Source: Nitrosopumilaceae archaeon
Lineage (GTDB): Archaea > Thermoproteota > Nitrososphaeria > Nitrososphaerales > Nitrosopumilaceae
Reading direction: 5' to 3'
DNA length: 64,000 bases
NCBI GenBank assembly: GCA_965208905.1
Contig: OZ242365.1
Coordinates: 1,504,001-1,568,000, forward strand
The translations under genes were made by a program, and so were the position numbers. How positions within the stretch are numbered: position 1 is the stretch's first letter; every line of letters begins with the position of its first letter. The notes beneath the pieces were generated by a model. That model did no database searches. It worked only from the letters and a program-made list of their open reading frames with translations, and was not told where the DNA came from. Shown here piece after piece: positions 28,371 to 58,636 of the stretch.

Positions 28371-31645
<3,275 letters not shown>

Positions 31646-31649
<4 letters not shown>

Positions 31650-34600
31650 TGTATCATCATACTGTACAATATACGGGGCCTACCAATCTCCCGGCGATAG
31701 CCGTATGGTTTCTTAAATATTGATTCAAGTTGTTCCAATATTGTACGATCATCCAGCCCATCTTTATTTATCCTCTTTCGAAGATGGCTAAGGCTCCTGT
31801 ATGGTTGCCTGTTTGTGACTATCATCTGCGTAATCTTTGGTATCAGCACCTTTGCACGCCTTCCAAGCAGGCGATCTTCTGCCATATCTCGTAGTTTTCG
31901 CTCAAAATATTTTTGAATCTTTGAGGTCTGTTTTCTTGCCTGCTCATCTTTTACATCACGGGTGAATGTTCGCCATGCGTAATTTAACATGTCGTCATAC
32001 GAGGAGTCGATCTGAATTTTATTCCTCTTGGAGTCATTGCCCAGATATTTGAGAAACAAAGATGCAGTCATCTTTGTGATATCACCATCCTCTACATTAT
32101 AGTATCTCCGGAATGTCTTTGTCTTTATAATATCATCATCTAGAATTATCTTTTCATCTGCTTCGCATGCAACAAGCAGTCTCCCAGAACCAGTGGCACT
32201 ACGTATGCCAAGCGGAAGGGACTCTATCTTTTCTTTTAGTTTGTCATCCCCCAGTATCTTTTCTGCGTCAAGCTCAGATGCCGTCTGGACTACATCTAGT
32301 ATTCCATCAGGGTCATCATCCAGCACACTGTCCTGACCGGAATAGATGTCTATTACGGCATCCTTGTCAATTTTTTCAGACTCCTCTAGTATTTTTTGGT
32401 CGTGTCCGATTATCTTGCGTATGGTCTCTATCTTTTTTGCCACCCTCTCTTTGAGTCCCAAGTGTTGTTCGATCTTGCTAGTAGGAAGAAAGTTTATGAC
32501 ATCTACGGTGTTGTGTTTGGAGCCAATTCTATCTATGCGGCCCACTCTTTGTATCAGCCTTACCGGATTCCAGTGAAAGTCATAGTTAATTACAACCCGA
32601 CCCGCCTGTAGATTGACACCCTCAGAGAGCACATCTGTACTTATCAGTATGTCAAGTTGGTCCTCTAGCGGGATGTTGGCATTGTTATTGATTGGATCAA
32701 ACCTACGGACTAGATCTCTCTTTGTACGGGCAGATTTTAGAGAATCAATCTGGCCTATTTTGGCGCTAGGCATGTTTTTCTCAAGGTAGTCATATACGTA
32801 TATGGCAGTCTTGAGGGATTCTGTAAACAATAGTATCTTTTGGTTACTGTACGATTCCAGTATGCCACGCAATGTATGGAGCTTGTCATCATACTTGTGG
32901 AATTTTTTCTCATTTGGTAGTAGTTTCAGCATGGATTCAAATATTGCTATGTCATCTTTAATGTCTGCCTTCCACCGGTCTACATCAAATGCCTCTATAT
33001 CATATGTGGACTGGCCCAATTCATCATCAATATCGGCATCGGACATTATGCTCTTGTATATGCTGTCCTGAGAGTCCTTGCCTATCGGCACTACACCATC
33101 TTTTAGATACTCTAGAAACTTGTCAGAACCTTTTGCATAGTTTTTAACACTAGAGTAGAATGCCGCAATGCTGGACTCCATCCTTTTTAGCAGCACAGTA
33201 CGGACTATACCGGTAAGTAAGTTCATTGAGGCTGCCAGGTCGTTGTATTTTTTGTGTTGGGGGATGTGTGGTGTCCTGATACTCTTCCCGGAGATAGTTG
33301 CCCGGAGTGTACCGTGCAAGCTTTAGTGAATCCACATACTCCTGTATACGCTCAAATGCATTCTGGTACACCATGTCAATGTCATATTCCTGTGGATTGT
33401 CCAGTTTTCTCTTTGGAAAGTACTTTCTTTCAGATTCTGATTCCAGATAGTACCTGTCGCCGTCTTTTTTGGCATAGTTGTCCTGAATATACTTTCTTGT
33501 ACGGCGGATGAGAACATGTCGAAGTAACTCCCTAATTTTCTCCTCACCCTCGGGAGTCAGCTGATGCTGCTGCTCTGCGCCCTTAAAGTACTCATCAAGA
33601 TTGGCGTTTCCCAAAGCAGGTATATTTAAGATCGTATCTGCAGGGAATAATTTCAACTGGTTTTTGAGATCATTAACACTATTGGATATGGGTGTTGCAG
33701 TCAGCATTATTATGTAAGAGTCATCTGGCTGCTGCTCCATAAAGCAGCACAGTGCATTATACGCATTGTTCTTGTTTCTAAAGTTGTGACTCTCATCCAC
33801 AAGTACGACGTCACAATTGGTGTACTGTCTCAGTAGGTTTTCATCCATCCCTATCTTGTATCTTGAGAGTACATCGGCATTGACACCAAACTCCTTCATG
33901 TAGTCCTTCCACATTCCTATTAGGTGTGGCGGGCATATGATGAGGGGTTTTGATCTGTTTTTCTCTTGCAGGTGTTTGAGCAGCATGCTGCCGATGTATG
34001 ATTTGCCGGTTCCCACGACATCTGCTATTATGACCCCACCATACTCATTTATCTTGTATATGGCATTTTTGACTGCCATCTTTTGAAAGTCAAATAGTTT
34101 TAGATGTTCTGACTCTTCTACCTCTATTTCATCAAGCGTACCATGCTCATGCAGTGCTGCCTTTTGATATACCTCTTGGGGCGTGCGGGGCTTTATCCAA
34201 GAATCATCCATCATGCGTGCCATCTCTTCTGTAAACTCTTCGGATTCATCCCAGTGGCGGTTAAACCATTCAAGTAACTTTTCAGAGTCATTATCAACGT
34301 TGGTGCGCAGGTTCAGTTCAGTATTCTCCCTTATACCGGATATCGAGAGGTTGCTTGAACCTACTATGGACATTCGAGGAAGTGATGGGTGGTCAAGCTC
34401 AAATATGTACGCCTTTGCATGTAGGCGCTCTTTGGCATATACCCGAATCTGCAGCTTTTTCTTGCGTACTAAATTGATCAGTTTTGTGACTGCCTCCTGA
34501 TCTTTTTGTGACTGCGGCATGTGTCCCAGCGAGTCACGCACCTGTTGTATTACAATCGCTCTACCATTTTTTATGCTTGATGATGCCTTGCGCTGCACAT

Positions 34601-34853
34601 ACTCAAGGGACTCGTTGGATGCAAGCAGTGCCTCGGCCGTAAGCTTGTTGGTGGTAGGCGATATGAGGAGGCGTATGACGTAATTCGGGTTGTTGCTAGA
34701 TTCAATCTTTAAAAAACTGTTCATTATCTCAGCAAACCCAGATATGAAGAAATATCCGACGGCAATGCTGGCTCTGGTTGTATTTGGAAGATGTAGTTTT
34801 AGCTGATCCAGAAGAACCACATTCTCATTATCTATTACACTCTCGTTTGACAA
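31646..34853 (-). pseudogene. PLD-domain/SNF2-type helicase split by a single frameshift at a 5-nt G run (33259-33263)
   Basis: PLD LHAKAYIF...GSSNLS; Walker A ADVVGTGKS; VDESH; TATP. Second ORF has SEGVNLQ and WNPVRLIQRVGRIDR. Removing one base gives continuous ...QDTTHPQHKKYNDL. Confidence 0.85.
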
Positions 34854-41001: not shown

Positions 41002-43677
41002 ATGTATGTGACTAAAGGGCCTAGCCTACCCGAACCAAGAGTAGTAAAATTCTCAACACTCATGTATGATATTTCAGAGGGAAAGATCAAAATACCACAG
41101 TTTCAGCGCTATTTTGTATGGAGTATGAAAGAATCGGCAAGGCTACTAGATAGCATATTGAAGGGTTATCCTATTGGCACGTTCATTATGTGGAATACAG
41201 ATGAACGTTTACACGCGGTTAGAGATATTGGAAGCATTAAACTCCCTGAACCAAACGAAAACGAGTATGTGAATTTTGTACTAGATGGCCAGCAAAGGAT
41301 AACGAGTATATTTGCGGCATTAAATGGGGAGACAATCGAACTAAAAGATGGTAAGAAGGAGGAATTTTCAGATATTGTGGTAGATCTTGACGCTAAGTTA
41401 GATGAGGATATAATCACTACCAAACAAGATGCCGACAAATCACATACCACCATACAGTTAACGACTCTGCTGTATGGGGGATTGTTCGAACTATCCAAAT
41501 TCGACCAGAAATACCACGAAAAGTTGGACGATTACAAGGAAAAAATAAACGCCTACAATTATTCCGTGATACAGGTGAGTCACGCAACCATAGATGTTGC
41601 AGCCGAGATATTTGAAAGGACAAATGTTGGAGGGAAACGTCTAGATACCTTTCAGATAATGGTGGCCAAAACATATGACCATGCAAGTGGGTTCGACTTG
41701 GCAGAGAAGTCTGATGAATTAGTGGAAAAGTTAAGGGCCGTAAAATACGATACACTGCCCAAGCACACAGCGCTACACCTTATCTCACTAATTCTTAAAG
41801 GTGAGGTTAAGAGGAAGGCTATGCTTTCCCTACAGAAAGACGATGTTAAAGGTAAATGGGAATATGCAGTTAATGCCATACAGGAGGCAGTAGACTACCT
41901 TAGGAGTTACTACCGCATACCAGTATCTAGACTACTCCCATATGATTCACTTGTCGTCCTAATAGCATACTTCTTCTACAAAAATCATGGTAAACCGCCT
42001 AACGTAAACCAAGCAAAATACCTAGACGACCTCTTCTGGAGAGTGTCATTAACTGGACGATATGCTGGTTCATCAGATACTAAGATAGCCCAGGATGCAA
42101 AACACGTCAATAAGATAATAGATGGTCAACGACCAGAATACGACTGGCCCATAAATATTTCTGTCAAGCGTAGCGGGGAGTTTAAAGTTGGAGGGGCTTT
42201 TAGTAAAGCCATTATCTGTATTTACGCGTATTATGAACCTAAATCCTTCAAAAATGACGCTAAGGTAAGTATAGACAACAACTGGCTTAAGCGTACAAGT
42301 AGCATGAACTATCATCATTTCTTCCCTAAAAGTTACTTGAAGGTTAAAGGTGTAGCGGACCAAGAGATTAACAACGTGCTTAACATCACCCTTGTAGATG
42401 ATTACTTAAACAAGCAGGAGATACGCGGCCGAGCACCGTCTGACTACATGAAGGAGTTTAGTAAGAAAAATAAAAGGCTTTCACAAACTATGAAGACCCA
42501 CCTCATAAACGACCTAGATGAATTTGGAGTGTGGAGTGATGATTACCAAACTTTCCTGAATAAACGCGCATTAGCTGTTGATGACGCCATTAAGAAGAGA
42601 ATAATTTTAAAAGAAGGGGAGTCAGTTATGTCAAATACAACTGAATTAGAGCAGAATACTAGTGATAAACCACTACATACTATCAAATATGTCAGAGGTA
42701 TGAAATGTCCTATTAGTATAATATGCTCAGGTAGGCAGGCGCCTATACAATCATGGGTGGATGTGCTCTATGAGGTGGCAGCATATCTAGTGAAGAATCG
42801 GCATCTTAACAACTCACATTGTCCAATACCGATAGGGAAGGAGAACATGCTACTACACACAAAATCAACCCATCAGAATGGTAAACCATTCTCCACGTAT
42901 AGGAGAGTTGGGGAGTTATATCTTAACACCAATCTCAGTCCTACTAATGCCCTAAAGCATGCTATAAAACTGATAAAGTTAGCCAAGAGGGACCAAAACT
43001 ATTTCAAACTAATCTTCAGCAACCCGAATATTAATAACAGCGCATCGTCGGTTTGGCCTGTGTGGGCGCGCGAGTCGTTCAAGCTAGAGGACTCGGAGGT
43101 TGCATACACATGTGACACGGATCCGTCCCTTACCCTGCCTATGACCGAAATGCCCAACCAGGAGTTCAAGTCCAGTTTCAAACATGACTATAAGGCAGAA
43201 TATTTTAGACAAAATAAAAAAGCTCTAGGCGCACATATAGAAAAACTCGTCAAGTCCACTGACGGCAAGGGTTTGCAGTATGAGGTTGCCAAGAGCATAG
43301 TTGGCATGGCAAACTCAGAACATGATGCCGGACGTATATGGGTCGGTGTCGGAGACCCAGAATCTGGCGGGAAACCAAAACTACTGGGGCTATCCAAAGA
43401 CTTCAAAAAGAATTACAACAAAGAAGAAATCAGGCGCAGGATACAAAATTGGCTTAGTAACTGCATCAGAGATTACCCCTTGGTTGACTCAGATATTGAC
43501 ATACGGTTCCCAAAAATGCAAGGCGTTGAGGTGTGTCTGATAACGGTGCGTAAGCGTAACAGTGCATCACATACCATAAATGGTAAATTTTGGCTTCGTG
43601 ACATGAATGCTCCCCGTACAACTGAACCTAACAGTTCTGTCCTTCTTGCTTACACAAAAAAGCGCTTCCAAAATTGA
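41002..43677 (+). CDS. GmrSD-like DUF262-HNH protein with an extra middle domain and a C-terminal Schlafen/AlbA_2 domain
   Basis: IPQFQRYFVW, DSILKGYPIG, LDGQQRITS, FERTN; HHFFPK...NITL...N; C-terminal EFKSS...VGMANS..GRIWVGVGD...FWLR. Confidence 0.82.
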   Translation: MYVTKGPSLPEPRVVKFSTLMYDISEGKIKIPQFQRYFVWSMKESARLLDSILKGYPIGTFIMWNTDERLHAVRDIGSIKLPEPNENEYVNFVLDGQQRITSIFAALNGETIELKDGKKEEFSDIVVDLDAKLDEDIITTKQDADKSHTTIQLTTLLYGGLFELSKFDQKYHEKLDDYKEKINAYNYSVIQVSHATIDVAAEIFERTNVGGKRLDTFQIMVAKTYDHASGFDLAEKSDELVEKLRAVKYDTLPKHTALHLISLILKGEVKRKAMLSLQKDDVKGKWEYAVNAIQEAVDYLRSYYRIPVSRLLPYDSLVVLIAYFFYKNHGKPPNVNQAKYLDDLFWRVSLTGRYAGSSDTKIAQDAKHVNKIIDGQRPEYDWPINISVKRSGEFKVGGAFSKAIICIYAYYEPKSFKNDAKVSIDNNWLKRTSSMNYHHFFPKSYLKVKGVADQEINNVLNITLVDDYLNKQEIRGRAPSDYMKEFSKKNKRLSQTMKTHLINDLDEFGVWSDDYQTFLNKRALAVDDAIKKRIILKEGESVMSNTTELEQNTSDKPLHTIKYVRGMKCPISIICSGRQAPIQSWVDVLYEVAAYLVKNRHLNNSHCPIPIGKENMLLHTKSTHQNGKPFSTYRRVGELYLNTNLSPTNALKHAIKLIKLAKRDQNYFKLIFSNPNINNSASSVWPVWARESFKLEDSEVAYTCDTDPSLTLPMTEMPNQEFKSSFKHDYKAEYFRQNKKALGAHIEKLVKSTDGKGLQYEVAKSIVGMANSEHDAGRIWVGVGDPESGGKPKLLGLSKDFKKNYNKEEIRRRIQNWLSNCIRDYPLVDSDIDIRFPKMQGVEVCLITVRKRNSASHTINGKFWLRDMNAPRTTEPNSSVLLAYTKKRFQN

Positions 43678-45633: not shown

Positions 45634-45692
45634 TAGTGACAGACATAACCCCGAACGTTAATATATCTAACGTGTAAGTGTCTCCAAGTATA

Positions 45693-46798
45693 TAGTGAGG
45701 TGCATAAATAACCCGACACTAATTTTACGCCGGTAGAATTTTGTCCAAATTTCTGAACAGAATGTTGCGCGGCTTAAACTTTATTTCCAGTGAATCGTAT
45801 ATCGGCATGATTTTTCTTCGGAAATATCTTTTGGCCGGCCGCCTGAAAGTTCGCCATATCCTTGCCGTTGAGCCATAACCATTCGGCCGGATTTAAAAAC
45901 GGCGAGTACGGAGGCAAGAATATCAGTTTGACGAAATTATTATTCTTTTTCAAGTATCGCTTTACGCGGTTAGAGTTGTGATATGCGGCATTATCCAATA
46001 TTACGGCAACCTTGCCGAACCGTTTTTTCGTCTTGTTCAAATACCGGATAAAGGACCTGTCGTTGGCCTTGCTAGCGGCCATATAGCATGTCTGCCCGTC
46101 CAGCGTGATGCCGCCGTATATGGTCTGGCGCTGGTTGCCGAGTGGCGTTTGTACCGGTATGGCATCACCGCGTGTATAGACTGCGCCGCTGCCAAACATG
46201 CTCAAATTTTGGTGGCTTTCATCCGATATTATAGGCGTGAATCCATCTTTTTTTCAGTATTTTTATCTCATTTGTAGTATCTTTCTGCCAGATTTCGAGA
46301 TCTTTCCTTGGTGGAATTCGGTCGGATATCCGGGGAGTCTTCCGTATAGTAAAGCCAAGAGACCTAAGGATGCGGCGCGCTTGCGATTCGCTGTATTTTA
46401 TGCCGGTCTTTTTCTCAGCCAGTTTAACAAATCCGTAGGCGGTGAATTGCTTGGCACCGTTAATTATATTCTCTAATGTGTGGCGCGGTACGAAAGATGG
46501 ACGGCCAGGCCTCGCACCATCGGCGAGGCCATCCAGGCCTTTATGGTCGTAGACATTAAGCCAATCACATATGGTGCTACGATCGACACCAAGCACATCC
46601 GCTGCCGCAGAGATTGTATATCCTTTAATGCGCACCATATTTACGGCTACGATACGGGCGTATTGCGTTGTACTCTTAGTCTGTTTTAGAGCAGCCTTTA
46701 TTTTTTGGGCATCAGTTTGGTTACTCATATAATTAGTTAGTGATTTTGATCATTTATGTATTTCTAATAGAGTGTAGGATTATTTATGCTCCCAACTA
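45693..46798 (-). mobile_element. IS630-family element, full length but frameshifted
   Basis: TIRs TAGTGAGGTGCATAAATAACCCGACACT / AGTGTAGGATTATTTATGCTCCCAACTA with TA flanks; HTH ORF plus SDES, ILDNAAYH, LPPYSPFLNPAE. Confidence 0.92.
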
Positions 46799-46904
46799 TA
46801 TCTAATCAAAAATGTAAACGTCAAAGTATATCCTTAACTACAGTAATCTGAATTTTTCTCAGTCAATATACACTATTTGAGTATTGACCGTTAATGTAAC
46901 AAAA

Positions 46905-48449
46905 TTACATAAAGAATCTGTAGTGATCCTGTAATACTTTATCTTTTTCCAATTCAGATAAAATCTTACCTACTTCTTCAGCAAATCTAATTGTAATTGG
47001 AAGAGCGGTTGAAAATGCAGTGGTGTTCCAATTTAGTTTTGTTAACCCAAGAATCTCTCTTGCGACGTCTTCATTCTGAGAGTTCCCTATATGTAATATG
47101 CGTAATGCGTTAGGAATCTTATGGCCTGCATACGAACGTATTCTTGGTGAAAACCCAGATGAATAAAGCAAAAATTCATTATTTGTTATTTCTACCAATG
47201 TTCCACGAAGAACAGGATAATTACCTAACCGAATAAAGTTAATCCATCCATGACTTGGACTTATTGTAACAAAGTCTTTTTCAGGAATCTTCTGTCCGTA
47301 TATTGCCTTGTTAAACCCAGTTTGTTCGTCTTCAGAAAATATAGATGACTTGTGTACTACAACTCGAGTTGGATTTCGTCCAGATGAAGTATGGTACTTT
47401 TTCAGAGCACATTCCATGAGAGTTTGTGCTTGGTTTTTTTTCATGTATGGTTGTTTTGTTTTTTCATCAATATCAACTTCGGTTCCTCGAAGCACGAGTC
47501 CCTCTCCATTATGTGTAAAGACTTGTGCCATTGAGATCTGTATATCGCGATTTGGACTTAGTTTGTCTCTAAAGAATGAAATTCCTATATAGCATGTATC
47601 TTGTCGTAGTTTTGCAAGTCTCCAAGGTTTTCCATTTGCTTTGTAGTATAATGCAGTACTGAAGTTCCAGCTAAACGTAGCAGGATCTTCTTTTGTGTTA
47701 TTTTTGAAGTTTTCATACTTTAGAACATGTTTTAATGTACTTTCTCTGATCAACTGGATTGGAATTCCATACTTCATTGCTTTGCCTTTAAGTGAGTTTC
47801 TAAAATCAAATCCCTTCTCTTTTATCTCTACATCGTTGACAGGAGCAAATCCCCATTGTGTTAGAAAGCTTTGGTGGTTTGCTTTTAGGTCTGCAGTTTT
47901 TAGCTCTAATGGTGAAGGCTTAGCAGTCTTTGCACCATATGTGTGCTCTCCAATTCCACAGTACAATTCTGCAGGTTTTGGAAGTGTACAGACAATTACG
48001 TTTGGTAGGTCATCACCTTCAGCAATTTTTTCTATTTTTTCGAGATATAGATTTACTGCATAACCAATCCTTTCATTAGGATTCTCAATATTTTCTATTT
48101 TGTGGAGTTCCAAATCATCCGACAACGACGCATTCCAATTTTTTGAGGTTTTTATAGTACACTTAAATTTACTTTTATTGTTCATTCCGGGATAATCAGC
48201 AAAAAGCCATCTGTTTAACTTGTAACTAGGAACAGGTTGTTCTATGAACCTTAAAATATCTTTAACAAGACGTGTACATTCTTTGTTTCCAATTATACCA
48301 ACTCTAACACTTTCCAACGGTGAGGATTCTTCCTGATGAAAAAATGGACCAAATTGTCCGAGGCCAATTCTAGGATCCTTGTCTTCGTTCTGGTTTCCAA
48401 AGATCAGGTCAGGTTCTGGAATATATTTTGCAACAAACTTAGGAACCAA
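46905..48449 (-). CDS. ago: Short prokaryotic Argonaute (MID-PIWI, slicer tetrad absent)
   Basis: EPDLIFG..DPRIGL..FGP; FRNSLK...IPIQLIRESTL; ALYYKANGKPW; CYIGISF; AQVF; VVVHKS; VLRGT; ILGLTKLNWN; PITIRFA; C-terminal YRFFM. No N or PAZ domain. Confidence 0.93.
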   Translation of the reverse strand: MVPKFVAKYIPEPDLIFGNQNEDKDPRIGLGQFGPFFHQEESSPLESVRVGIIGNKECTRLVKDILRFIEQPVPSYKLNRWLFADYPGMNNKSKFKCTIKTSKNWNASLSDDLELHKIENIENPNERIGYAVNLYLEKIEKIAEGDDLPNVIVCTLPKPAELYCGIGEHTYGAKTAKPSPLELKTADLKANHQSFLTQWGFAPVNDVEIKEKGFDFRNSLKGKAMKYGIPIQLIRESTLKHVLKYENFKNNTKEDPATFSWNFSTALYYKANGKPWRLAKLRQDTCYIGISFFRDKLSPNRDIQISMAQVFTHNGEGLVLRGTEVDIDEKTKQPYMKKNQAQTLMECALKKYHTSSGRNPTRVVVHKSSIFSEDEQTGFNKAIYGQKIPEKDFVTISPSHGWINFIRLGNYPVLRGTLVEITNNEFLLYSSGFSPRIRSYAGHKIPNALRILHIGNSQNEDVAREILGLTKLNWNTTAFSTALPITIRFAEEVGKILSELEKDKVLQDHYRFFM

Positions 48450-49932
48450 AAATTTCCTCCTCTAACTCTCCCTCATCATCCATTTCTGCATCAAATTCTT
48501 CAATATACTGATTAAAGTCTGCTGGAGGAATATCCCAAGTTATTCCAACTTCCATGCTTGTTTGTACTGATTTGTTTGATATTACAAAGTCTTTGATTAC
48601 CAATACATTGTTTCCATCGCCAAGCTTGTTAATCCAAAATAGAATGTTATTAAGCTGTTGTTTATTGTAAACTCTGTATGTTTGTGCTGTTATGATTGTT
48701 CCTGTTTTCATTCCAATCATAGGTGTACTTCCATCATTTGTGATCATCATGGTGGGATTCAACATAAGATAAAATTTTTCATCAATCATTATGACTCTGG
48801 CCCTGATTGATCCATGTGAATATACAAATCGTTTTAATTTGTCAGACCACATTTTTTTAGCAACTTGTTTTTTCTGAACCCCCCTGTATCTAGTAGCCCA
48901 TTCTTCTTTGCGCTCGTTTTCATAACTTGGCATTGTATAGTAGAATTTTTTGGTTTTATTATCGTAACATAATCCTTGTCGTTCTGCTTTAGCAGTAAAT
49001 TCCTTATTTAGTAAAGAAATGATTATCTTTTTCTTGTCAGGATCTTCTAACCAATTGACAACAGATTCTTGAAGTATTTTATCACGTTGAACAATCTCAC
49101 TATGAACGTCCATTGGATTGGTCAGATTTGCAAAGGTTACTATTTTATCTTCATACTGTCTATATTTTAATTGAAAATATTTTTGTTCAGGATGTACAAG
49201 CCGTAGTGTTTTAATTAGTTCTGCAAATGATTTATGTTTTGCAATACCGATGTAAACTTTTGCTGGAATGTTTTTTACTTCAAATAAATTGCTGTAAAGA
49301 ACCTCATGAATTTCTTCAGGTTCACCACTAAGAATCGACAATCGGTATTCTTCTTTTGTAAGACGTTTTTTGATTAACTTTATTTCATAATTAGAAGCGG
49401 GTACACTTTGTGTTCCTCGTCTTGTATATATGGTATTTTTTAGAACAACAGTCTTTTCATGCCCTTTTATGTAATATTTTATATCGTTTTTTGGGATCAT
49501 TATTTTAGGTGAAGGTAGAAAATAAATCAGGGCAAATTTTCTTTGTGTCTTGTTTATTATACGAAAAAATTCTGTGTATTGAATAGTGATTGGTTCATCT
49601 AAATATGAATTAATTTTTTCTTGCAATGATGCATCCTCTAACTCAAAATCATCAGCTAAACCAACTTTAACAAACTTCCCCTTAATTTTAGGATTGAAAT
49701 AATCATTTTGTTTTACACCAAGAACTAACCACCCTCCACCATAATTTGAAAATGCATAAACATCCTTGATTATCTTTAGAAAATCATGAGAGTTTTTTGT
49801 TAAATCAATAGTCATCTTAAAATCATGAAAAGTAGTTTCCTTTGTCTGAGATAAGAGATAATCACAAACATACTCACCTGTTGGATCTGATACTTCATTG
49901 TTGATTAACACATTGCCTCTAAAATCAGACAT
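48439..49932 (-). CDS. Schlafen/AlbA_2-APAZ fusion (pAgo partner)
   Basis: N-terminal ETTFHDFK...IKDVYAFSNYGGGWLVLGV...IYTRRGTQS (AlbA_2). From EVLYSNLFEV to YLMLNPTMMITNDG...YNKQQLNNILFW it matches the APAZ pattern. Overlaps the pAgo start by 11 nt. Confidence 0.85.
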   Translation of the reverse strand: MSDFRGNVLINNEVSDPTGEYVCDYLLSQTKETTFHDFKMTIDLTKNSHDFLKIIKDVYAFSNYGGGWLVLGVKQNDYFNPKIKGKFVKVGLADDFELEDASLQEKINSYLDEPITIQYTEFFRIINKTQRKFALIYFLPSPKIMIPKNDIKYYIKGHEKTVVLKNTIYTRRGTQSVPASNYEIKLIKKRLTKEEYRLSILSGEPEEIHEVLYSNLFEVKNIPAKVYIGIAKHKSFAELIKTLRLVHPEQKYFQLKYRQYEDKIVTFANLTNPMDVHSEIVQRDKILQESVVNWLEDPDKKKIIISLLNKEFTAKAERQGLCYDNKTKKFYYTMPSYENERKEEWATRYRGVQKKQVAKKMWSDKLKRFVYSHGSIRARVIMIDEKFYLMLNPTMMITNDGSTPMIGMKTGTIITAQTYRVYNKQQLNNILFWINKLGDGNNVLVIKDFVISNKSVQTSMEVGITWDIPPADFNQYIEEFDAEMDDEGELEEEIFGS

Positions 49933-49949
49933 GATCCTTTAGTATATTT

Positions 49950-49968
49950 CTACCTTTATATAAATAAC
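49950..49968 (-). promoter_or_regulatory. Putative archaeal TATA box of the Schlafen-APAZ/pAgo operon
   Basis: TTTATATAAA on the - strand about 20-30 nt upstream of the ATG at 49932. Confidence 0.55.
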
Positions 49969-49970
49969 TC

Positions 49971-50586
49971 AAGATCTCGAAATCTGGCAGAAAGATGCTA
50001 AAAATGAGATAGAAACACTAGAAAAAGACGGATTCACGCCTATAATGTCGGACGAAAGCCACCAAAATTTGAGCATGTTTGGCAGCGGCGCAGTCTATAC
50101 ACGCGGTGATGCCATACCGGTACAAACGCCACTTTGCAACCAGCGCCAGACCATATACGGCTGCATCACGCTGGACGGGCAGACATGCTATATGGCCGCT
50201 AGCAAGGCCAACGACAGGTCCTTTATCAGGTATTTGAATAAGACAAAAAAACGGTTCGGTAAGGTTGCCGTAATACTGGATAATGCTGCATATCACAACT
50301 CTAGCCGCATAAAGCGATACTTGAAAAAGAATAGTGATTTTGTCAAACTGTTATTCTTGCCGCCGTACTCGCCGTTTTTGAATCCGGCCGAATGGCTGTG
50401 GCTCAACGGCAAGACAAGGATACGGCGAACTTTCAGGCAGCCGGCCAAAAGATATTTCCGAAGAAAAATCATGCCGATATACGATTCACTGGAAATAAAG
50501 TTTAAGCCGCGCAACATTCTGTTCAGAAATTTGGACAAAATTCTACCGACGTAAAACTGGTGTCGGGTTATTTATGCACCTGACTA
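49971..50586 (+). mobile_element. 5'-truncated IS630 copy, inverted relative to 45693-46798
   Basis: Near-identical DDE half (50045-50554) and right TIR GTGTCGGGTTATTTATGCACCTGACTA followed by TA. Confidence 0.92.
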
Positions 50587-50738
50587 TAATTTGGGCCTAA
50601 TGCTTAATGGTTTATTTTGTGTAACATGTAATTTTGTTTTTATATGTCTGATGGCATACTGTTGCATATGGAAAACCATACGACGCGTATACTGCATCAA
50701 TGCATTGTGTTTTGGGACATCAAACGTGAGGGATTGAT

Positions 50739-51437
50739 TTGCAGACAAATGTAACGCATAAAAACAGAAAACCCCCATATCCGAACACTGTGTTGGGAGA
50801 AACACTTTGGTATATTGTCTGTAAAATATATGACAAAAACTTGGAGCCATATAAATATAAAAATGTGGTATTGGGACTAGTATTCCTTAAACACACGTTT
50901 GATGTATTCATGACGAACCCAAAAACGATAAAAACAATCCCCGGAAAATTCCAAAGTCATGAGAAACATACCATTAATCTCCTTTTGGTCCCAAATGATT
51001 ATCACTGGTTTAATATTACTCGGCAAGTACATCAGCCAAACACGGGACAAATAATGGATTATGCTATGTCGTTTTACTCTACACCAATACAAATTTGTAT
51101 CAAGATTTTATCTAAAAAGTGCAATAAAGGGGACGTACTGTTTAGTGATATGCGTATGATGAGTCACATGAAAGACAGGACATGCCACATTCTTAACGAT
51201 ATACCGCAAATAACCTATGATGCTTGGTGCAATCATTATTACAAAGATATATCTGGGTTTTGTAAAAGTGTCAACACGGTTGAAATAAACCTGCAATATT
51301 ATATGTTGGAGTCATGGCGTTATGTGGGAGAAATCAGTTCTAGCGATGTATCATCTGTTTGGTGGCAGGACAATTTATTTACAAAGTATAACAAACCACA
51401 GGACAAGACAGAGGGTTCGGGAGTCATACATAAATGA
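50739..51437 (+). pseudogene. hsdM: Internally deleted type I R-M HsdM remnant
   Basis: N-terminal YKNVVLGLVFLK and C-terminal GFCKSV..EI...RYVG are retained; SAM-binding and NPPF motifs are missing. Confidence 0.65.
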
Positions 51438-51856
51438 GTCTTGATGTTACCTCCTTAAAGAGCGCCATAGACCAGTTGCAGGATGCGCTTGCAGTATATG
51501 ATTCGGAACTTGTCCGCGACCATCCGTATCTTAAAAAACACCTGCGAAGCGCATGCATACAGGCTTTTGAGTTCACATATGAACTCTCTCTCAAGATGGT
51601 TAAGCGTTCACTGAAGACTTATTTTGAGATGGATGTTTTTAACATGACGTTTAACAGAATAATTCGAGAAGCCTATGCGCGTCAAATCATTGATTCTGAG
51701 CTTTCGGTCTGGCAAAAATACCGTCAGAACCGTACAATCACAAGTCATACGTATGCTGAGAAGGATGCGCAAGAAGTCTTTGAGGGTACTCCGGACTTTC
51801 TGGTTGAGGCCAAATATCTTTTGTCTCGGCTGCAGGAGTTAAACAAATATGACTAG
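51434..51856 (+). CDS. HEPN-family (HI0074-like) toxin / nucleotidyltransferase substrate-binding protein
   Basis: IQAFEFTYEL, RTITSHTY (Rx4H). Confidence 0.88.
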   Translation: MSLDVTSLKSAIDQLQDALAVYDSELVRDHPYLKKHLRSACIQAFEFTYELSLKMVKRSLKTYFEMDVFNMTFNRIIREAYARQIIDSELSVWQKYRQNRTITSHTYAEKDAQEVFEGTPDFLVEAKYLLSRLQELNKYD

Positions 51857-52157
51857 TCCAATTGACATCAACCCATACCATCTGGATATTGTGCGGGATA
51901 TATTGCACAAATATTTGCCAACTGGATTTAGCGTCTGGGTGTTTGGTAGCCGGGCCATCTGGACAACAAGATTTTCATCTGATCTGGATATTGCTGTCCA
52001 AGGAAAAGACAAGTTAGACTATGATTCCAAGCTTGCGTTGGATATTGCCTTTGATGAGTCGGCGCTACCGTATACGGTGGATATAATTGATCTAAATAAT
52101 GTCAATCCACAGTTTAAACTGATTGTTGACAAGGAAAAGGTACCACTTCCAATGTAA
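51849..52157 (+). CDS. Minimal nucleotidyltransferase (MNT) antitoxin
   Basis: VFGSRA...SDLDIAV...VDIID; the stop codon is supplied by the adjacent IS66 end. Confidence 0.88.
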   Translation: MTSPIDINPYHLDIVRDILHKYLPTGFSVWVFGSRAIWTTRFSSDLDIAVQGKDKLDYDSKLALDIAFDESALPYTVDIIDLNNVNPQFKLIVDKEKVPLPM

Positions 52158-53720
52158 CAGGATGTCAATAAGATTGTGGAGTTTTTTAGTAAAAAATTCG
52201 ATGTACAGGACAGGGAAATTGCACAGAAGGACGATACAATAGCACAATTACAGGACCGGATAAAGCAGCTGGAGGAGGAAGTCACACAGACGAAATCGCG
52301 TAGGTATGGCGGCAAAAAATCCCGGTCATATAACATCCGTAAATACAAGGACTACCCACACCAGCACACGCCAAGAAACAGGCCCGACAACTCTGACTCG
52401 CACCAATTTCGTACAATACAACAGGTGGCCGATATTGTATTCTGTCCCACGTGCGGCAAACATCTTGCAGATACTGCTGTATCACGCACCCGGAAATCCG
52501 AGGATGTGTTAGACGGGCGATGGACCGTAACTGAATGGGTAGTACGCCGGCGATACTGCAAACACTGCCGTACGCAACACTCTGCAACCATTCCGGGTGT
52601 GCTGTATAATGGACATTTTGGCACTACAATAATGGCCCAGATATTTGCAATGCGGTGCCTTGCCATACCGTATGAAAAAATTCAAACCATAATACACATG
52701 CTGTTTGGCAGGTTCATCGACACATCCGTAGTTATAGACATGTGCGATGCCGTTGCAGACCGGTGCGAGCCGTTATACAATGAGATGTTGGAGGCTATAC
52801 AGCATACCGATATAGTATTTGGGGATGGCTCCGGATGGTTCCTTAATGGTGTACACTGGTGGGTCTGGGCGTTTATCACCTCACACATAGTACTGTTTCA
52901 TCTGTCTCCGTCCCGCAGCAAGCTTGTAACTGAGGCCATACTGGAGGGGTTTGATGGGATAATTGTAGGTGATTCACATTCCTCGTGGAATGATATAGGC
53001 CTGGAAAAACAGAGGTGTCTTCTGCACTATTTCCGTGACATGTACCGCACGCTAGAAAAGAACAATAGTCCAGAGTTCAAGCAGCTATTCACCGAGCTGC
53101 ATTCCATACTAAAGGATGTAATAAAGCTGCGGGAAGAACACCGGAAAACACCCGAATTGTACATACGTCGTCTACAGAGCCGCATATGTACTCTTGCAAA
53201 TGCACAATACACGGATTCGGACTGTATACGATACGCCAAGCGTTTAAGGCGCGAGGGCGGACAGCTTTTGACGTTTCTAAAACATGATGACATACCGTAC
53301 CACAACAACACAAGTGAGCGCGCCCTACGGACATTTGCACTAATGAGAAAGGTCTGTTACGGAAACCGCGCAAGGCGCGGCATAAAGACCGCTGAAATAC
53401 TGGCGAGCATATATGCAACCTGCCGTGTACGCGGCATAAACCCGTACTATTTTATGAAGGATTATCTTGACGGCAATACGGACACGATTCCACTGCCGCA
53501 AGACTCCATGATTCCAGTTGCCATCAGTACGTGATGCATAAATTGTTGCAGGACATCAGTCAGATACATCCACCTGTCTCTATTTCCAGTTGCCATCAGT
53601 ATGTGATGCGTAAATTATTGCAGGAAAGGTCAATACGATACTGCCGTGTGTATATGATTATGGATGGTTCACCGTATTTGTGTTGTGTGTGATCCCAGCT
53701 TCACAATCACGAGCTGTTAC
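52154..53720 (+). mobile_element. IS66-family element (transposase 52176-53534)
   Basis: Ends GTAACAG...CTGTTAC; CPTCG, CKHC, QRCLLH, HNNTSERALR. No TSD seen; ~42-bp direct repeat at 53512 and 53584. Confidence 0.85.
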
Positions 53721-55382: not shown

Positions 55383-56315
55383 TCATTCGGCATTGACCAG
55401 TTTGACAAGTCTCTGCAGATATATAGTAAATTGGTCTACAAACCCGTTGAATTTTTTTTCATCTATTTCTGTAACCAGCAAATCTTTTTCCCCGCCCCAT
55501 TCGAATATATTGTCTTGTTCGACAAGCATTCTTTTTTGCGCGAAATTATTCCTAAATCTTTCATAGCGCAGCAGCGCAAAGTCAATTTTTTTAATTACAC
55601 AACCTTCAATATCTTCTACGTCTATTCCGAATTCCTCGGAAATCATGTACACATCTAAAAAATCTCGAGCTTTGGTTCCTCTTCTGGTTAAGAGTGCCCT
55701 GATCTTCTCACTCATAATTTCTTTTATGTCATATATCCTAAAAGGTATCGAAGAGGAGTATTGATCATATTCGTCAAACACACCCTCCAGATCTTTGTGT
55801 TCGTCTCCAATCAGGCTCCGAAGGGCCCCGTATTGCGGTTTCATGCACAAATCTTCTACAAAGTTTATTTGCACTTTCAAATCCACATTTCTGTTTAGTA
55901 TTACAGAGTTATAGCGGATGTGGAATGTAGTGATCCTTCCACCGTTGTTTAATTCCACGTAATTCCTGTTGCCTTTATCCCACTTGAAATCAAGGTTGCA
56001 CCCGGCCGCGATGCCTTCCAACATGTTTCCAGTCTGTTCCAGCACATCTTCCAAATACTTGACAATCCAGCTCGTTGTTTTTCCGACAAACTCTTCCTGT
56101 TTCCGCCATGTAAAGTCCAAGTCTTCGGAGAACCTGTAATATCCGAGATAATATTTTATCAGGCAGGTCCCACCCTTGAAAAGAAAATTATCGGCAAAGA
56201 ACCCATCTCTGGACAGGTCTGCAAGTATTTGATGTAAGACAAAGTCTTTTTCAATTTGTTCCATTCTCGAAATCTTTGTCAGCGTCGAGACTTGATTTAT
56301 GAAGTACGAATTCAT
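55383..56315 (-). CDS. abiEii: AbiEii-family nucleotidyltransferase toxin (type IV TA)
   Basis: IEKDFV, FKGGTCL..YY...YRFSEDLDF, EKIRAL..R..ARDFLD. Confidence 0.92.
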   Translation of the reverse strand: MNSYFINQVSTLTKISRMEQIEKDFVLHQILADLSRDGFFADNFLFKGGTCLIKYYLGYYRFSEDLDFTWRKQEEFVGKTTSWIVKYLEDVLEQTGNMLEGIAAGCNLDFKWDKGNRNYVELNNGGRITTFHIRYNSVILNRNVDLKVQINFVEDLCMKPQYGALRSLIGDEHKDLEGVFDEYDQYSSSIPFRIYDIKEIMSEKIRALLTRRGTKARDFLDVYMISEEFGIDVEDIEGCVIKKIDFALLRYERFRNNFAQKRMLVEQDNIFEWGGEKDLLVTEIDEKKFNGFVDQFTIYLQRLVKLVNAE

Positions 56316-56947
56316 TAAACCATCCTATCCACCATTTTTGCTACCGATTTTGGATAGTTTACGGCATATCTCTGCATCTTTTTTTGGGATACGTTTTCAG
56401 CCCATTCAGAGGTATCCATCATAATTCTTTCACTGTTCTTTCCTTCTTGCCGCCACAAATAAACAAAGTCCAAAATTGTCTTTTCTGGATCAGAGTAGCG
56501 AAGTAGTCCTTCGGTCTTTATTCCAAAACCAAGCAGGGAAGGGACAATCTTGATAAAGTCGAAATAGTATCCTGTTATCTTTATTGGTTTTTGACGAAAT
56601 ATAGAATCATTGATCACCTTCTCAATCACAAAATATTCATGCGTCATGTTGTTGAGTTTCAATGCGGAATGAAGGCCAAAGTGCCAGTTTTTTACACCCT
56701 TTAACTCCATACCTTTTGCTACCAGTTCCAGATGGTTGTATCTTTCCTTTCTTAGTACCATATCCTCGGGAGGCCTAACATAAAATATTCCCCTAAAGAT
56801 CCTTGTCAGGTGACCACGGTGAACAAAGTTTCTGACAGTTGTGTCGTAATCCAAGTGCAGTTTAATGCAGTAACCTTTTAGGACCTCGGCGGTGACAAAT
56901 TCTTCTTTCTCCACCCATAGCTTGTTGAGTAGCTTACTTATCTTCAT
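56315..56947 (-). CDS. abiEi: AbiEi-like antitoxin / transcriptional regulator
   Basis: wHTH-like N-terminus (RIFRGIFY), SAL, SDPEKTILD; TAATG coupling to the toxin gene. Confidence 0.8.
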   Translation of the reverse strand: MKISKLLNKLWVEKEEFVTAEVLKGYCIKLHLDYDTTVRNFVHRGHLTRIFRGIFYVRPPEDMVLRKERYNHLELVAKGMELKGVKNWHFGLHSALKLNNMTHEYFVIEKVINDSIFRQKPIKITGYYFDFIKIVPSLLGFGIKTEGLLRYSDPEKTILDFVYLWRQEGKNSERIMMDTSEWAENVSQKKMQRYAVNYPKSVAKMVDRMV

Positions 56948-57162: not shown

Positions 57163-58636
57163 CTAGAGTTTATGCGTAATCAGAGTTAGTAGAGTTTATG
57201 CGTAATCAAACCACTTTCAAGCGATCTGAAACACATAACACGCTGTTGGTGTTTCCACCATCCAGAGGTATACATTGAGCCTTCCGCGTACCGGGAAGGG
57301 TTGCTCCAACCACGGGGGGAGTCATACCCGTGTCAAGATGTATCTGCCCTCTCGAGGCCAGTCTGACCTCGCGCTGGAGTTTCTGCACGGCGCGAATCCG
57401 CGCAGACCACCAGACGATTGCAAAAGTGTATAGTATATTGAATGCTGCGTTTACATCCGCGTGTATTGTTTTACGACTGTTCATGACAGGTTAATTTCCG
57501 GCCTTCGCGCAATGTGTTATATCTGCAGCACATAAAGCACATCTTTGAGGTGTTGCGGGGGTTGACCTCTGCATATTCGACGTTGTGTCGTGTGGAGCCA
57601 TACGCCATGTAATTCCGTGCCTCGCCGCACTTTGACTGTCGCATCTTTTTGTTCTTCTCTGTCTGTCCCGGGCCGGCGCGCGTCAGGGTATCAAGCCCCA
57701 TCCCCTCAAAGATTATCTTGTCACACTGCTCGAATAGTTTTTTGGCGAACTTTCTGAGTCTGTCGCGCTGACGATTCTTCATCTTTCTGTATATGGCGTT
57801 TAACTGTTTTTTGAGATTGACATATTTCCGCGAACCTGCTGTGCAGCGCGACATGCGCTGGTGCAGCCCGCGTATCTTGTGTAGTGTGATCTTTTCGCGT
57901 AATGACAATACATTTGCGGTTCCATCGGACTTGGCAACTACCATGGTATGGTGCCCACCCATGTCTACTCCGGCGAACACACCGGTACATACGCGGTCCG
58001 GTATATGCTCACGAACTGTCACATGTAGCTCGAACTGCCGTTCCTTATCAGAGTGGTTTGTAACGTCTACTATCTTGTACGACTGGGAGTCTTTGGGCAG
58101 CTCGCCTTTCTGCAAGTAGAATGGAACACTGCAACACGGAAAGTAGACCACATTGCCGGTGGACTTTTTTCCCAGCGGCCTGGCGCTATACAATGGATAT
58201 GTATGGTTGCCATACGGTACAACCCTCTTGTGTTGTACGTCTGGTGTCTTGCACTTGCACACATCTTCAGGTGAGCCGCACGATGTACAGCTGCCCTGCA
58301 TCTTTCTGCCGACCTGTATCGCCCCGTACGCGAATGCTTGTGGTATAGTAGATACAAGCGTTACGACCTTTGCGCAGTCAATGAACGTCGCCCCAATGTT
58401 TCTGGCCTGCAGACCGGCGTTCAACCATACATGAGACTCGGACTCCATCGAATCAAAGTATGCAGTCAGCCGGGTGCTAGTCTTGAGACGATACGTTAGT
58501 GTGCGGGTCACATGCTTGGTTCCCTGATACTTTGGTATAATGTACTGTACAGTCTATACAATATACATGATCCGACATATATATACAATTTTAAAAATTA
58601 TAATAGTCAGATTTTTCGATTACGCATAACCTCTAG
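57163..58636 (-). mobile_element. Non-autonomous element bounded by IS5-type TIRs carrying only a tnpB-like gene
   Basis: CTAGAGTTTATGCGTAATC (57163; core repeated at 57190) and GATTACGCATAACCTCTAG (58618-58636). Confidence 0.85.
57206..58511 (-). pseudogene. tnpB: TnpB-like RNA-guided nuclease with one frameshift near 57485
   Basis: RuvC-I GVDMG, RuvC-II IIFEGM, VNPRNTSKMCFMC; RuvC-III HADVNAAFNIL lies in the next frame. Confidence 0.88.

Follow-up and report, generated by a model that had tools for sequence, protein, structure and literature searches.

A Schlafen/AlbA_2-APAZ protein paired with a short Argonaute in a Nitrosopumilaceae archaeon

Short prokaryotic Argonaute (pAgo) systems serve as programmable nucleic-acid detectors in which the effector sets the read-out. 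A stretch of 64,000 nucleotides (nt) from a Nitrosopumilaceae archaeon (contig OZ242365.1, positions 1,504,001 to 1,568,000), here called the window, contains a two-gene cassette in which a short pAgo follows a protein that combines a Schlafen (SLFN)/AlbA_2 domain with an APAZ region. The locus thereby joins two immune modules common to eukaryotes, Argonaute and Schlafen, and raises the question of which read-out such a combination would provide. In the literature covered, the effector types with functional or structural data are TIR, SIR2, DREN and HNH, and a Schlafen-APAZ system, if true, would add an RNA- or tRNA-cleaving output to the read-outs of short pAgos. Both proteins could be assigned to their domain families; the catalytic motif is intact and invariant, the two genes are conserved as a pair and fused in some lineages, and they are distributed in a mobile and sporadic manner. 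We consider it rather probable that the cassette is a horizontally acquired two-gene short pAgo defence system whose Schlafen domain would act as a guide-activated, tRNA-cleaving RNase in abortive infection.

An earlier note on this DNA had described two intact, AT-rich genes that overlap by 11 nt behind a TATA box, and this description was borne out. Both reading frames, SLFN-APAZ and then pAgo, are present in the list of open reading frames (ORFs) and overlap at 48439-48449. Their GC contents are 31.3% for SLFN-APAZ and 35.9% for the pAgo, with 33.3% for the cassette, versus 43.3% for the window, and a TATA-box-like element, TTTATATAAA, is centred about 26 nt from the first ATG. Judging from the TATA-ATG geometry, it is probably the archaeal promoter of a leaderless first gene. 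The start of the second gene is a TTG, which is credible because a Shine-Dalgarno-like GGAGG lies 6 nt upstream and because in the closest related locus, L001, the same GGAGG stands 6 nt ahead of an ATG at the equivalent position. The motifs to which the note had drawn attention were likewise all found, namely ETTFHDFK (residues 32-39), AFSNYGGGWLVLGV and YTRRG in the first protein and GIS and HKS in the pAgo. The locus is an intact representative from an archaeon, in which the layout of the probable promoter and of the Shine-Dalgarno sequence is clear.

Domain architecture and active site

The SLFN-APAZ protein of 497 amino acids (aa) consists of two parts. In the Pfam analysis PF04326 (SLFN_AlbA_2) was its sole match, with no match to GHKL, and aligned to residues 32-179 over profile positions 1-117 of 118 (expectation value E 7e-11; 43.1 bits, where the cut-off is 25.3); this match was also recovered in a genome-wide search. 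The remainder of the chain, residues about 201-494, is covered by eight PADLOC profiles for APAZ (PNTD1-PNTD2), with a best E of 3.5e-27. These profiles belong to APAZ fused with SIR2, restriction endonuclease or TIR domains in other systems. When a single sequence was used to search the PDB, the only match was in the APAZ part, to the HNH-APAZ chain of SPARHA (9om4_A, E 9.4e-11), and with a 70-sequence profile the same chain was found at E 3.1e-28. The profile also matches the DREN-APAZ chains of SPARDA, within the APAZ part alone (query residues 213-403). RNase H chains that appeared in the single-sequence search at E about 0.5 were judged to be chance matches.

The predicted structures lead to the same division. 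An AlphaFold2 model of the full protein, built with 70 relatives, has a mean predicted local distance difference test score (pLDDT) of 85.1 and shows two folded domains connected by a low-confidence linker at residues 199-206. As evidenced by a Foldseek search of the PDB, the full model resembles the APAZ chains of SPARDA, SPARHA and SPARTA (E down to 9.5e-16), with target-normalised template modelling (TM) scores of 0.74-0.84 against APAZ-only chains. The N-terminal 200 residues modelled alone gave a pLDDT of 90.6 and a predicted TM score of 0.86, and for this domain Foldseek returned 14 matches at E<=1e-3; the best 17 matches are all mammalian Schlafens (SLFN11, 13, 12, 14 and 5). A profile of 24 N-terminal domains matches SLFN13 (5yd0_A, E 1.9e-4) and CbCash, a CRISPR-associated Schlafen (9ylu_A, E 2.6e-4). 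The earlier assignment of the N-terminus to the AlbA_2/Schlafen family is upheld by PF04326, by the Foldseek matches of residues 1-200 and by the active-site motif, and that of the C-terminus to APAZ by the PADLOC profiles, by the sequence match to 9om4_A and by the Foldseek matches to APAZ chains of all three systems.

For an analysis of the active site, 169 out of 5505 candidates qualified as relatives at E<=1e-3, and we aligned 115 of the 120 that were listed, keeping lengths of 470-530 aa and dropping 5 short sequences; all counts over these 115 sequences, here and below, refer to the matches listed. The residues E32, D37 and K39 of the motif Ex4DxK are invariant in 115/115 full-length relatives, in 70/70 sequences of a second alignment and in 24/24 loci, and K56, N63, G65, G67, G72, R171 and R172 are likewise invariant in the relatives. 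In a profile alignment the E-D-K triad of the family falls on E17, D22 and K24 of CbCash, and its RRG on the RRG of CbCash. The pattern Ex4(E/D)xK is described as the active-site motif of prokaryotic Schlafens, and RorSlfn5, a tRNase that depends on Mn, loses its activity through the double exchange E15A/D20A (Perez Taboada et al. 2026, PMC13056530). In CbCash the catalytic centre consists of E17, D22 and K24 with a metal ion at the T-loop of tRNA, and its mutation abolishes tRNA cleavage (PMC13462974).

The partner protein of 514 aa is a short Argonaute that consists of MID and PIWI only, without N or PAZ domain, and that aligns end to end with the short pAgos of SPARTA, SPARDA and SPARHA (471-507 aa), in agreement with the original reading of this gene. 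The PADLOC profile pAgo_I covers it from end to end (E 5.3e-143, profile positions 3-455 of 455). Its nearest solved relatives in the PDB are the pAgos of SPARDA (9qbp_B, E 2.5e-60; 9jsb_A; 9qbl_B), followed by that of SPARHA (9om4_B, E 6.9e-52) and then by those of SPARTA (E about 1e-49 to 1e-50). Pfam gave no match to this protein at E<=1, and NCBIfam matched its Argonaute equivalogs below threshold only (28.9 bits against a cut-off of 700).

Two sets of positions were followed in a family alignment of 22 pAgos, comprising the query and those 21 loci in which 450 residues or more could be aligned (L003, L004, L013 and L014 were dropped). At the GIS position, S291, a serine is found in 20 and an alanine in 2 of the 22 sequences, and at the HKS position, residue 368, all 22 have S, T, K or L and never D or E; both are presumed positions of the DEDX tetrad. 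In the SPARDA pAgo the counterparts of the two stretches are GIG and LKT. In the MID domain, K221 and Q232 are present in 22/22 sequences, position 217 is an arginine in 17 and a histidine in 5, and the SPARDA pAgo has FRDLLKAK...PTQIV at the aligned stretch. By the pattern of the Argonaute family we take R217, K221 and Q232 to be a candidate pocket for the guide's 5' end. Koopal et al. (2022) describe all short pAgos as lacking the catalytic tetrad.

Conservation of the pair and relation to known systems

Scanning GTDB with a single genome for each species, we obtained 27 related loci. As located by tblastn, a pAgo on the same strand directly follows the 3' end of SLFN-APAZ in 25 of them, the exceptions being L022, which lies at a contig end, and L026, a fragment of 117 aa; in the survey of homologous operons that the earlier note had suggested, the pairing is thus kept. 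The pAgo is better conserved than its partner: in L001 it is 82% identical to that of the window, and SLFN-APAZ 65%. A third gene conserved alongside the pair did not emerge from the 369 flanking ORFs of the 27 loci and the window, and a cluster of neighbours from five loci, considered as such, turned out to be an antisense ORF inside the pAgo gene. Archaeal titles are attached to 26/27 loci, which come from Nitrososphaeria, DPANN groups, Methanoperedens, ANME-1, Bathyarchaeia, Thermoplasmata, Archaeoglobus and Thorarchaeota. The sole locus with a bacterial label, L002 (CATQGX010000003.1), is from a metagenome-assembled genome (MAG) assigned to Gammaproteobacteria, a label that is unconfirmed; its SLFN-APAZ is 54% and its pAgo 62% identical to those of the window, and it could reflect a binning error or an inter-domain transfer. 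Closer to the host, a search of 9 genomes of the same genus did not find the pAgo, and among 24 genomes of the same family one encodes another short pAgo, with 37% identity.

In three MAG loci from Thorarchaeota, a lineage of the Asgard archaea, the two genes are replaced by a single fused SLFN-APAZ-pAgo ORF of 967, 969 and 981 aa in which Ex4DxK is intact. This is a Rosetta-stone fusion, analogous to the SIR2-APAZ-pAgo fusions, and it is paralleled by the S1A SPARSA-A fusions; to the proposed heterodimer it lends indirect support. The 115-sequence family alignment, the fused Asgard variants and the target residues E32, D37, K39 and Q75/D77 are the resources that result from this survey.

The similarity to characterised short pAgo systems raises the question of how the cassette is to be classified. 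With SPARDA it shares the operon layout, with two genes of which the first encodes an APAZ fusion and the second a MID-PIWI pAgo, the APAZ by fold and profile, the R/K/Q stretch of MID and the nearest solved pAgos. It differs in the effector, which in SPARDA is a DREN domain (DUF4365, PD-(D/E)XK) and here is Schlafen/AlbA_2, in the substrate, which there is collateral DNA and RNA and here is predicted to be RNA (tRNA), and in its archaeal distribution. The window system was rejected as a SPARDA, as it has no DREN and its N-terminal domain is Schlafen/AlbA_2. SPARHA provides the best sequence match of the APAZ region and the next closest pAgo, but its effector is an HNH DNase, whereas a Schlafen RNase domain is predicted here. 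The likeness to SPARTA and SPARSA, in which a TIR- or SIR2-APAZ protein accompanies the short pAgo, lies in the sensor logic and in the folds of APAZ and pAgo; their effectors are NADases, and the output is depletion of NAD+.

Other relatives share the effector. RzAgo, a Schlafen-pAgo described by Kuzmenko et al. (2026, 10.64898/2026.05.29.728809), likewise combines an Argonaute sensor with an AlbA_2 Schlafen effector, and in RzAgo the combination of RNA guide and DNA target sets off both tRNA cleavage and abortive infection. It is a single extra-long pAgo of the long-B type that includes PAZ/L1 and is brought to tetramerise by a GHKL ATPase, whereas the window system has two genes and a short pAgo, no GHKL match and no PAZ, with APAZ in place of PAZ. 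For these reasons, namely the two genes and the lack of GHKL and PAZ, it was not assigned to the RzAgo type. According to the same source, the SLFN domains of SLFN-APAZ proteins are only distantly related to its Clade II. CbCash resembles the window protein as a single-lobe Schlafen in which E-D-K and RRG align, and its activation by oligomerisation or filamentation (PMC13462974) is a proposed further likeness; it differs in that its sensor is Csx15, which binds the cyclic tetra-adenylate cA4 from type III CRISPR, and here an Argonaute/APAZ module takes this place. RorSlfn5 (PMC13056530) has the same Ex4DxK and is a Mn-dependent tRNase that is switched on by trigger-induced oligomerisation, but there an immunoglobulin-like domain senses a protein of phage T5, and no nucleic-acid guide is involved.

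The class itself has been noticed before. Ryazansky et al. (2018) reported an orthogroup combining SIR2, Schlafen and APAZ, a 2023 preprint on SPARTA names 'Schlafen/Alba' among the partners of APAZ, SLFN-APAZ proteins are included in Kuzmenko et al. (2026, 10.64898/2026.05.29.728809), and short pAgos make up Schlafen Cluster 6 in the Cash paper (PMC13462974); Schlafen goes unmentioned in Koopal 2022. No functional study of the SLFN-APAZ/short-pAgo pair was found in the full-text literature, subscription journals and survey supplements aside. This agrees with the earlier supposition that surveys may have listed an effector class that is uncharacterised: the window locus belongs to a catalogued but uncharacterised short pAgo class, whose likely chemistry is predictable from work of 2026. 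The concept of an Argonaute-Schlafen combination is no longer surprising, since that year saw the characterisation of a long-B Schlafen-pAgo and of two further Schlafen tRNases from prokaryotes.

There is, in our estimate, an even chance that a wider interpretation holds. SLFN-APAZ with a short pAgo would then form a distinct, mainly archaeal fifth effector class, in which a guide-loaded Argonaute that senses invader DNA would assemble single-lobe Schlafens into a tRNase and so stop translation. From the Asgard fusions it would follow that in the archaeal lineage closest to eukaryotes a physical link already existed between Argonaute and Schlafen, two immune modules that eukaryotes have retained.

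Proposed mechanism and competing explanations

In the mechanism that we propose for the guide-activated tRNase, the MID-PIWI pAgo, presumed to be catalytically dead, would pair with the APAZ region encoded upstream to form a heterodimer, which would load a small 5'-phosphorylated guide, most likely RNA. Pairing of this guide with invader DNA would cause a conformational change or oligomerisation, either of which would arrange the N-terminal single-lobe Schlafen domains into an active state. The metal-dependent E32-D37-K39 centre would then cut host RNA, most likely in the loops of tRNA, so that translation would halt and the infection be aborted. Activation by an RNA guide and a DNA target is the most likely variant because of the homology with SPARDA, SPARHA, SPARTA and RzAgo, and a function as tRNase in abortive infection is suggested by the analogy with the prokaryotic Schlafen tRNases characterised in 2026. 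The single-lobe Schlafens of prokaryotes have to come together for activity, as seen in the filaments of CbCash (PMC13462974), the oligomerisation of RorSlfn5 (PMC13056530) and the tetramers of RzAgo (10.64898/2026.05.29.728809).

Several points weigh against this interpretation. The model of the N-terminal domain superimposes on the Schlafens with query-normalised TM scores of only 0.31-0.38 and a root-mean-square deviation of 8-13 A in Foldseek, so that the fold match is a partial one. The identification of GIS and HKS with positions of the DEDX tetrad comes from motifs that are presumed to apply here. The type of guide and target would be an extrapolation from bacterial relatives. In the window protein a glutamine, Q75, aligns with the third catalytic acid of mammalian Schlafens, which in SLFN13 is the D of GVDD. 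Lastly, the truncated insertion sequence (IS) on the 5' side of the cassette ends 8 nt upstream of the TATA box.

With respect to the third acid, position 75 is occupied by E in 82 of the 115 relatives, by Q in 25, by P in 7 and by D in 1, and an acid is found somewhere at positions 75-77 in 115/115. Where position 75 is Q or P (32/115, including the window protein with its D77), the acid is D77 in 30 sequences and E76 in 2. Judged by this co-variation, D77 probably compensates for Q75 as a shifted third acid, and the Q75/D77 variants may have a shifted metal-binding geometry.

These points bear on three other explanations of the cassette. The activated Schlafen domain might be a broad collateral nuclease that attacks rRNA, mRNA or DNA, including single-stranded DNA, rather than an RNase specific for tRNA. 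The pAgo and the APAZ region are nearest to SPARDA and SPARHA, whose effectors are described as collateral nucleases, and mammalian Schlafens are reported to cut rRNA as well; nevertheless we hold this to be unlikely, as each of the three Schlafen effectors from prokaryotes that have been characterised to date (RorSlfn5, CbCash and RzAgo) cleaves tRNA, and RorSlfn5 is reported to be inactive on DNA (PMC13056530). A passenger role, in which the cassette would be silent or without function after IS activity had introduced or rearranged it and disrupted its promoter context, would fit the truncated IS copy next to the TATA box, the broken genes in the neighbourhood and the TTG start codon of the pAgo. 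Both ORFs are full length, though, with all residues that are invariant in the family, the TATA box and the internal Shine-Dalgarno sequence are intact, and L001 shares the layout of Shine-Dalgarno sequence and start codon, which leaves this explanation a slim chance.

Slimmer still is the chance that AlbA_2 serves here as a non-catalytic nucleic-acid-binding module, which would bind or sequester the target or help in the acquisition of guides. Ryazansky et al. (2018) term Schlafen/AlbA_2 a DNA-binding domain, several mammalian Schlafens are without catalytic residues (PMC13462974), and the window protein has Q75 in place of the third acid. Set against this are the invariance of E32, D37 and K39 in 115/115 relatives, in a pattern that matches the proven centre of CbCash, the acid that is always kept at positions 75-77, and the presence of an enzyme in every characterised APAZ fusion.

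Host genome and surroundings of the cassette

The genome is a single contig of 2,214,775 bp and is 99.57% complete. Eight repeats of the TATA-binding protein (TBP) were found at 4 places, and the same search over 14 control genomes was positive in the 4 archaea only, in line with the archaeal host that had been claimed. A methanogen was ruled out as host, as McrA was not found in this 99.57%-complete genome. Note that four separate TBP genes are present in only 2.2 Mb (G000:C1, 678211-678726, 1630870-1631373, 1746894-1747394 and 2045613-2046128). The coordinates of the cassette and its surroundings are compiled in the table.

Table. Features of the short pAgo cassette and of its surroundings; positions are those of the window, except for the fused ORFs, which are on their own loci
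Feature	Position	Strand	Basis and remarks
SLFN-APAZ gene	48439..49932	-	497 aa, ATG start; ORF, Pfam, PADLOC
Schlafen/AlbA_2 nuclease domain	49396..49839	-	residues 32-179 by Pfam; folded domain about 5-195
Catalytic motif Ex4DxK (E32, D37, K39; ETTFHDFK)	49816..49839	-	invariance, CbCash alignment
APAZ region (PNTD1-PNTD2)	48451..49332	-	residues about 201-494; PADLOC, PDB, Foldseek
Short pAgo gene (MID-PIWI)	46905..48449	-	514 aa, TTG start; ORF, PADLOC, PDB matches
Candidate MID pocket for guide 5' end (R217, K221, Q232)	47754..47801	-	conservation, SPARDA alignment
TATA-box-like element TTTATATAAA	49954..49963	-	centre about 26 nt 5' of SLFN-APAZ ATG; read from sequence
Shine-Dalgarno-like GGAGG	48456..48460	-	6 nt 5' of pAgo TTG, within SLFN-APAZ 3' end; read from sequence
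Full-length IS630-like element (about 1113 bp)	45689..46801	-	abuts cassette 3' side; Pfam DDE_3 and helix-turn-helix (HTH)
IS630-like ORF, HTH orfA	46219-46728		
IS630-like ORF, DDE_3 orfB	45774-46205		
5'-truncated inverted IS630-like copy	49971..50588	+	matches IS query positions 92-705 only
Fused SLFN-APAZ-pAgo ORF, L023	1694-4597		
Fused SLFN-APAZ-pAgo ORF, L024	5983-8892		
Fused SLFN-APAZ-pAgo ORF, L025	5983-8928		
Type ISP restriction-modification gene	28371-31649		intact-looking
HKD(PLD)+Snf2 helicase	31646-34853	-	PADLOC C3a139; two overlapping ORFs
GmrSD_N, GmrSD_C, SLFN_AlbA_2 protein	41002-43677	+	891 aa; SLFN_AlbA_2 Pfam E 3.6e-7
Overlapping ORFs of 296 and 152 aa	44304-45633	-	no Pfam/PADLOC match
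HsdM remnant, then HEPN-like/MNT pair	50739-52157	+	HsdM remnant 232 aa
IS66 transposase	52176-53534		
AbiEi/AbiEii toxin-antitoxin pair	55383-56947	-	
TnpB (OrfB_IS605)	57471-58511	-	

The cassette, at 46802-49970, is bracketed by two IS630-like copies, of which one is full length and the other truncated and inverted. The element is present in the genome in 12 full-length copies at 91-100% identity and in several fragments, and the two copies at the cassette form inverted repeats (45691-46304 and 49971-50588) with 89-97% complementarity. A composite transposon was rejected, since one of the two bracketing copies is truncated; mobility as a unit is unproven. The low GC content, the sporadic distribution and the flanking IS copies point to a horizontal acquisition of the cassette.

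The surroundings form a defence island with a type ISP restriction-modification gene, a split HKD+Snf2 helicase, IS66 transposases and a GmrSD protein with an AlbA_2 domain, and further with a truncated HsdM, a HEPN/MNT pair, AbiEi/AbiEii and TnpB. The earlier remark that many neighbours have decayed stands in part: HsdM and one IS copy are truncated and the helicase is split, but several other neighbours look intact.

Among the neighbours, the GmrSD protein (DUF262/DUF1524-type) carries a C-terminal SLFN_AlbA_2 domain with the Ex4ExK-like motif EMPNQEFK, so that a second Schlafen-type domain is encoded 3 kb from the cassette; the best PADLOC matches of this protein are PDC-M55C and HEC-05. 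Between its gene and the IS element lie two overlapping ORFs that could represent an undescribed defence pair. The two ORFs of the helicase cover profile positions 3-473 and 499-774 and were likely split by a frameshift, and the type ISP gene adjoins them. On the other side of the cassette, the HsdM remnant retains HsdM_N but of the N6_Mtase profile only the final third; next come a HEPN-like (NTase_sub_bind) gene paired with an MNT (Polbeta) gene and, after these, an IS66 transposase. The AbiEi/AbiEii pair and TnpB extend the island further.

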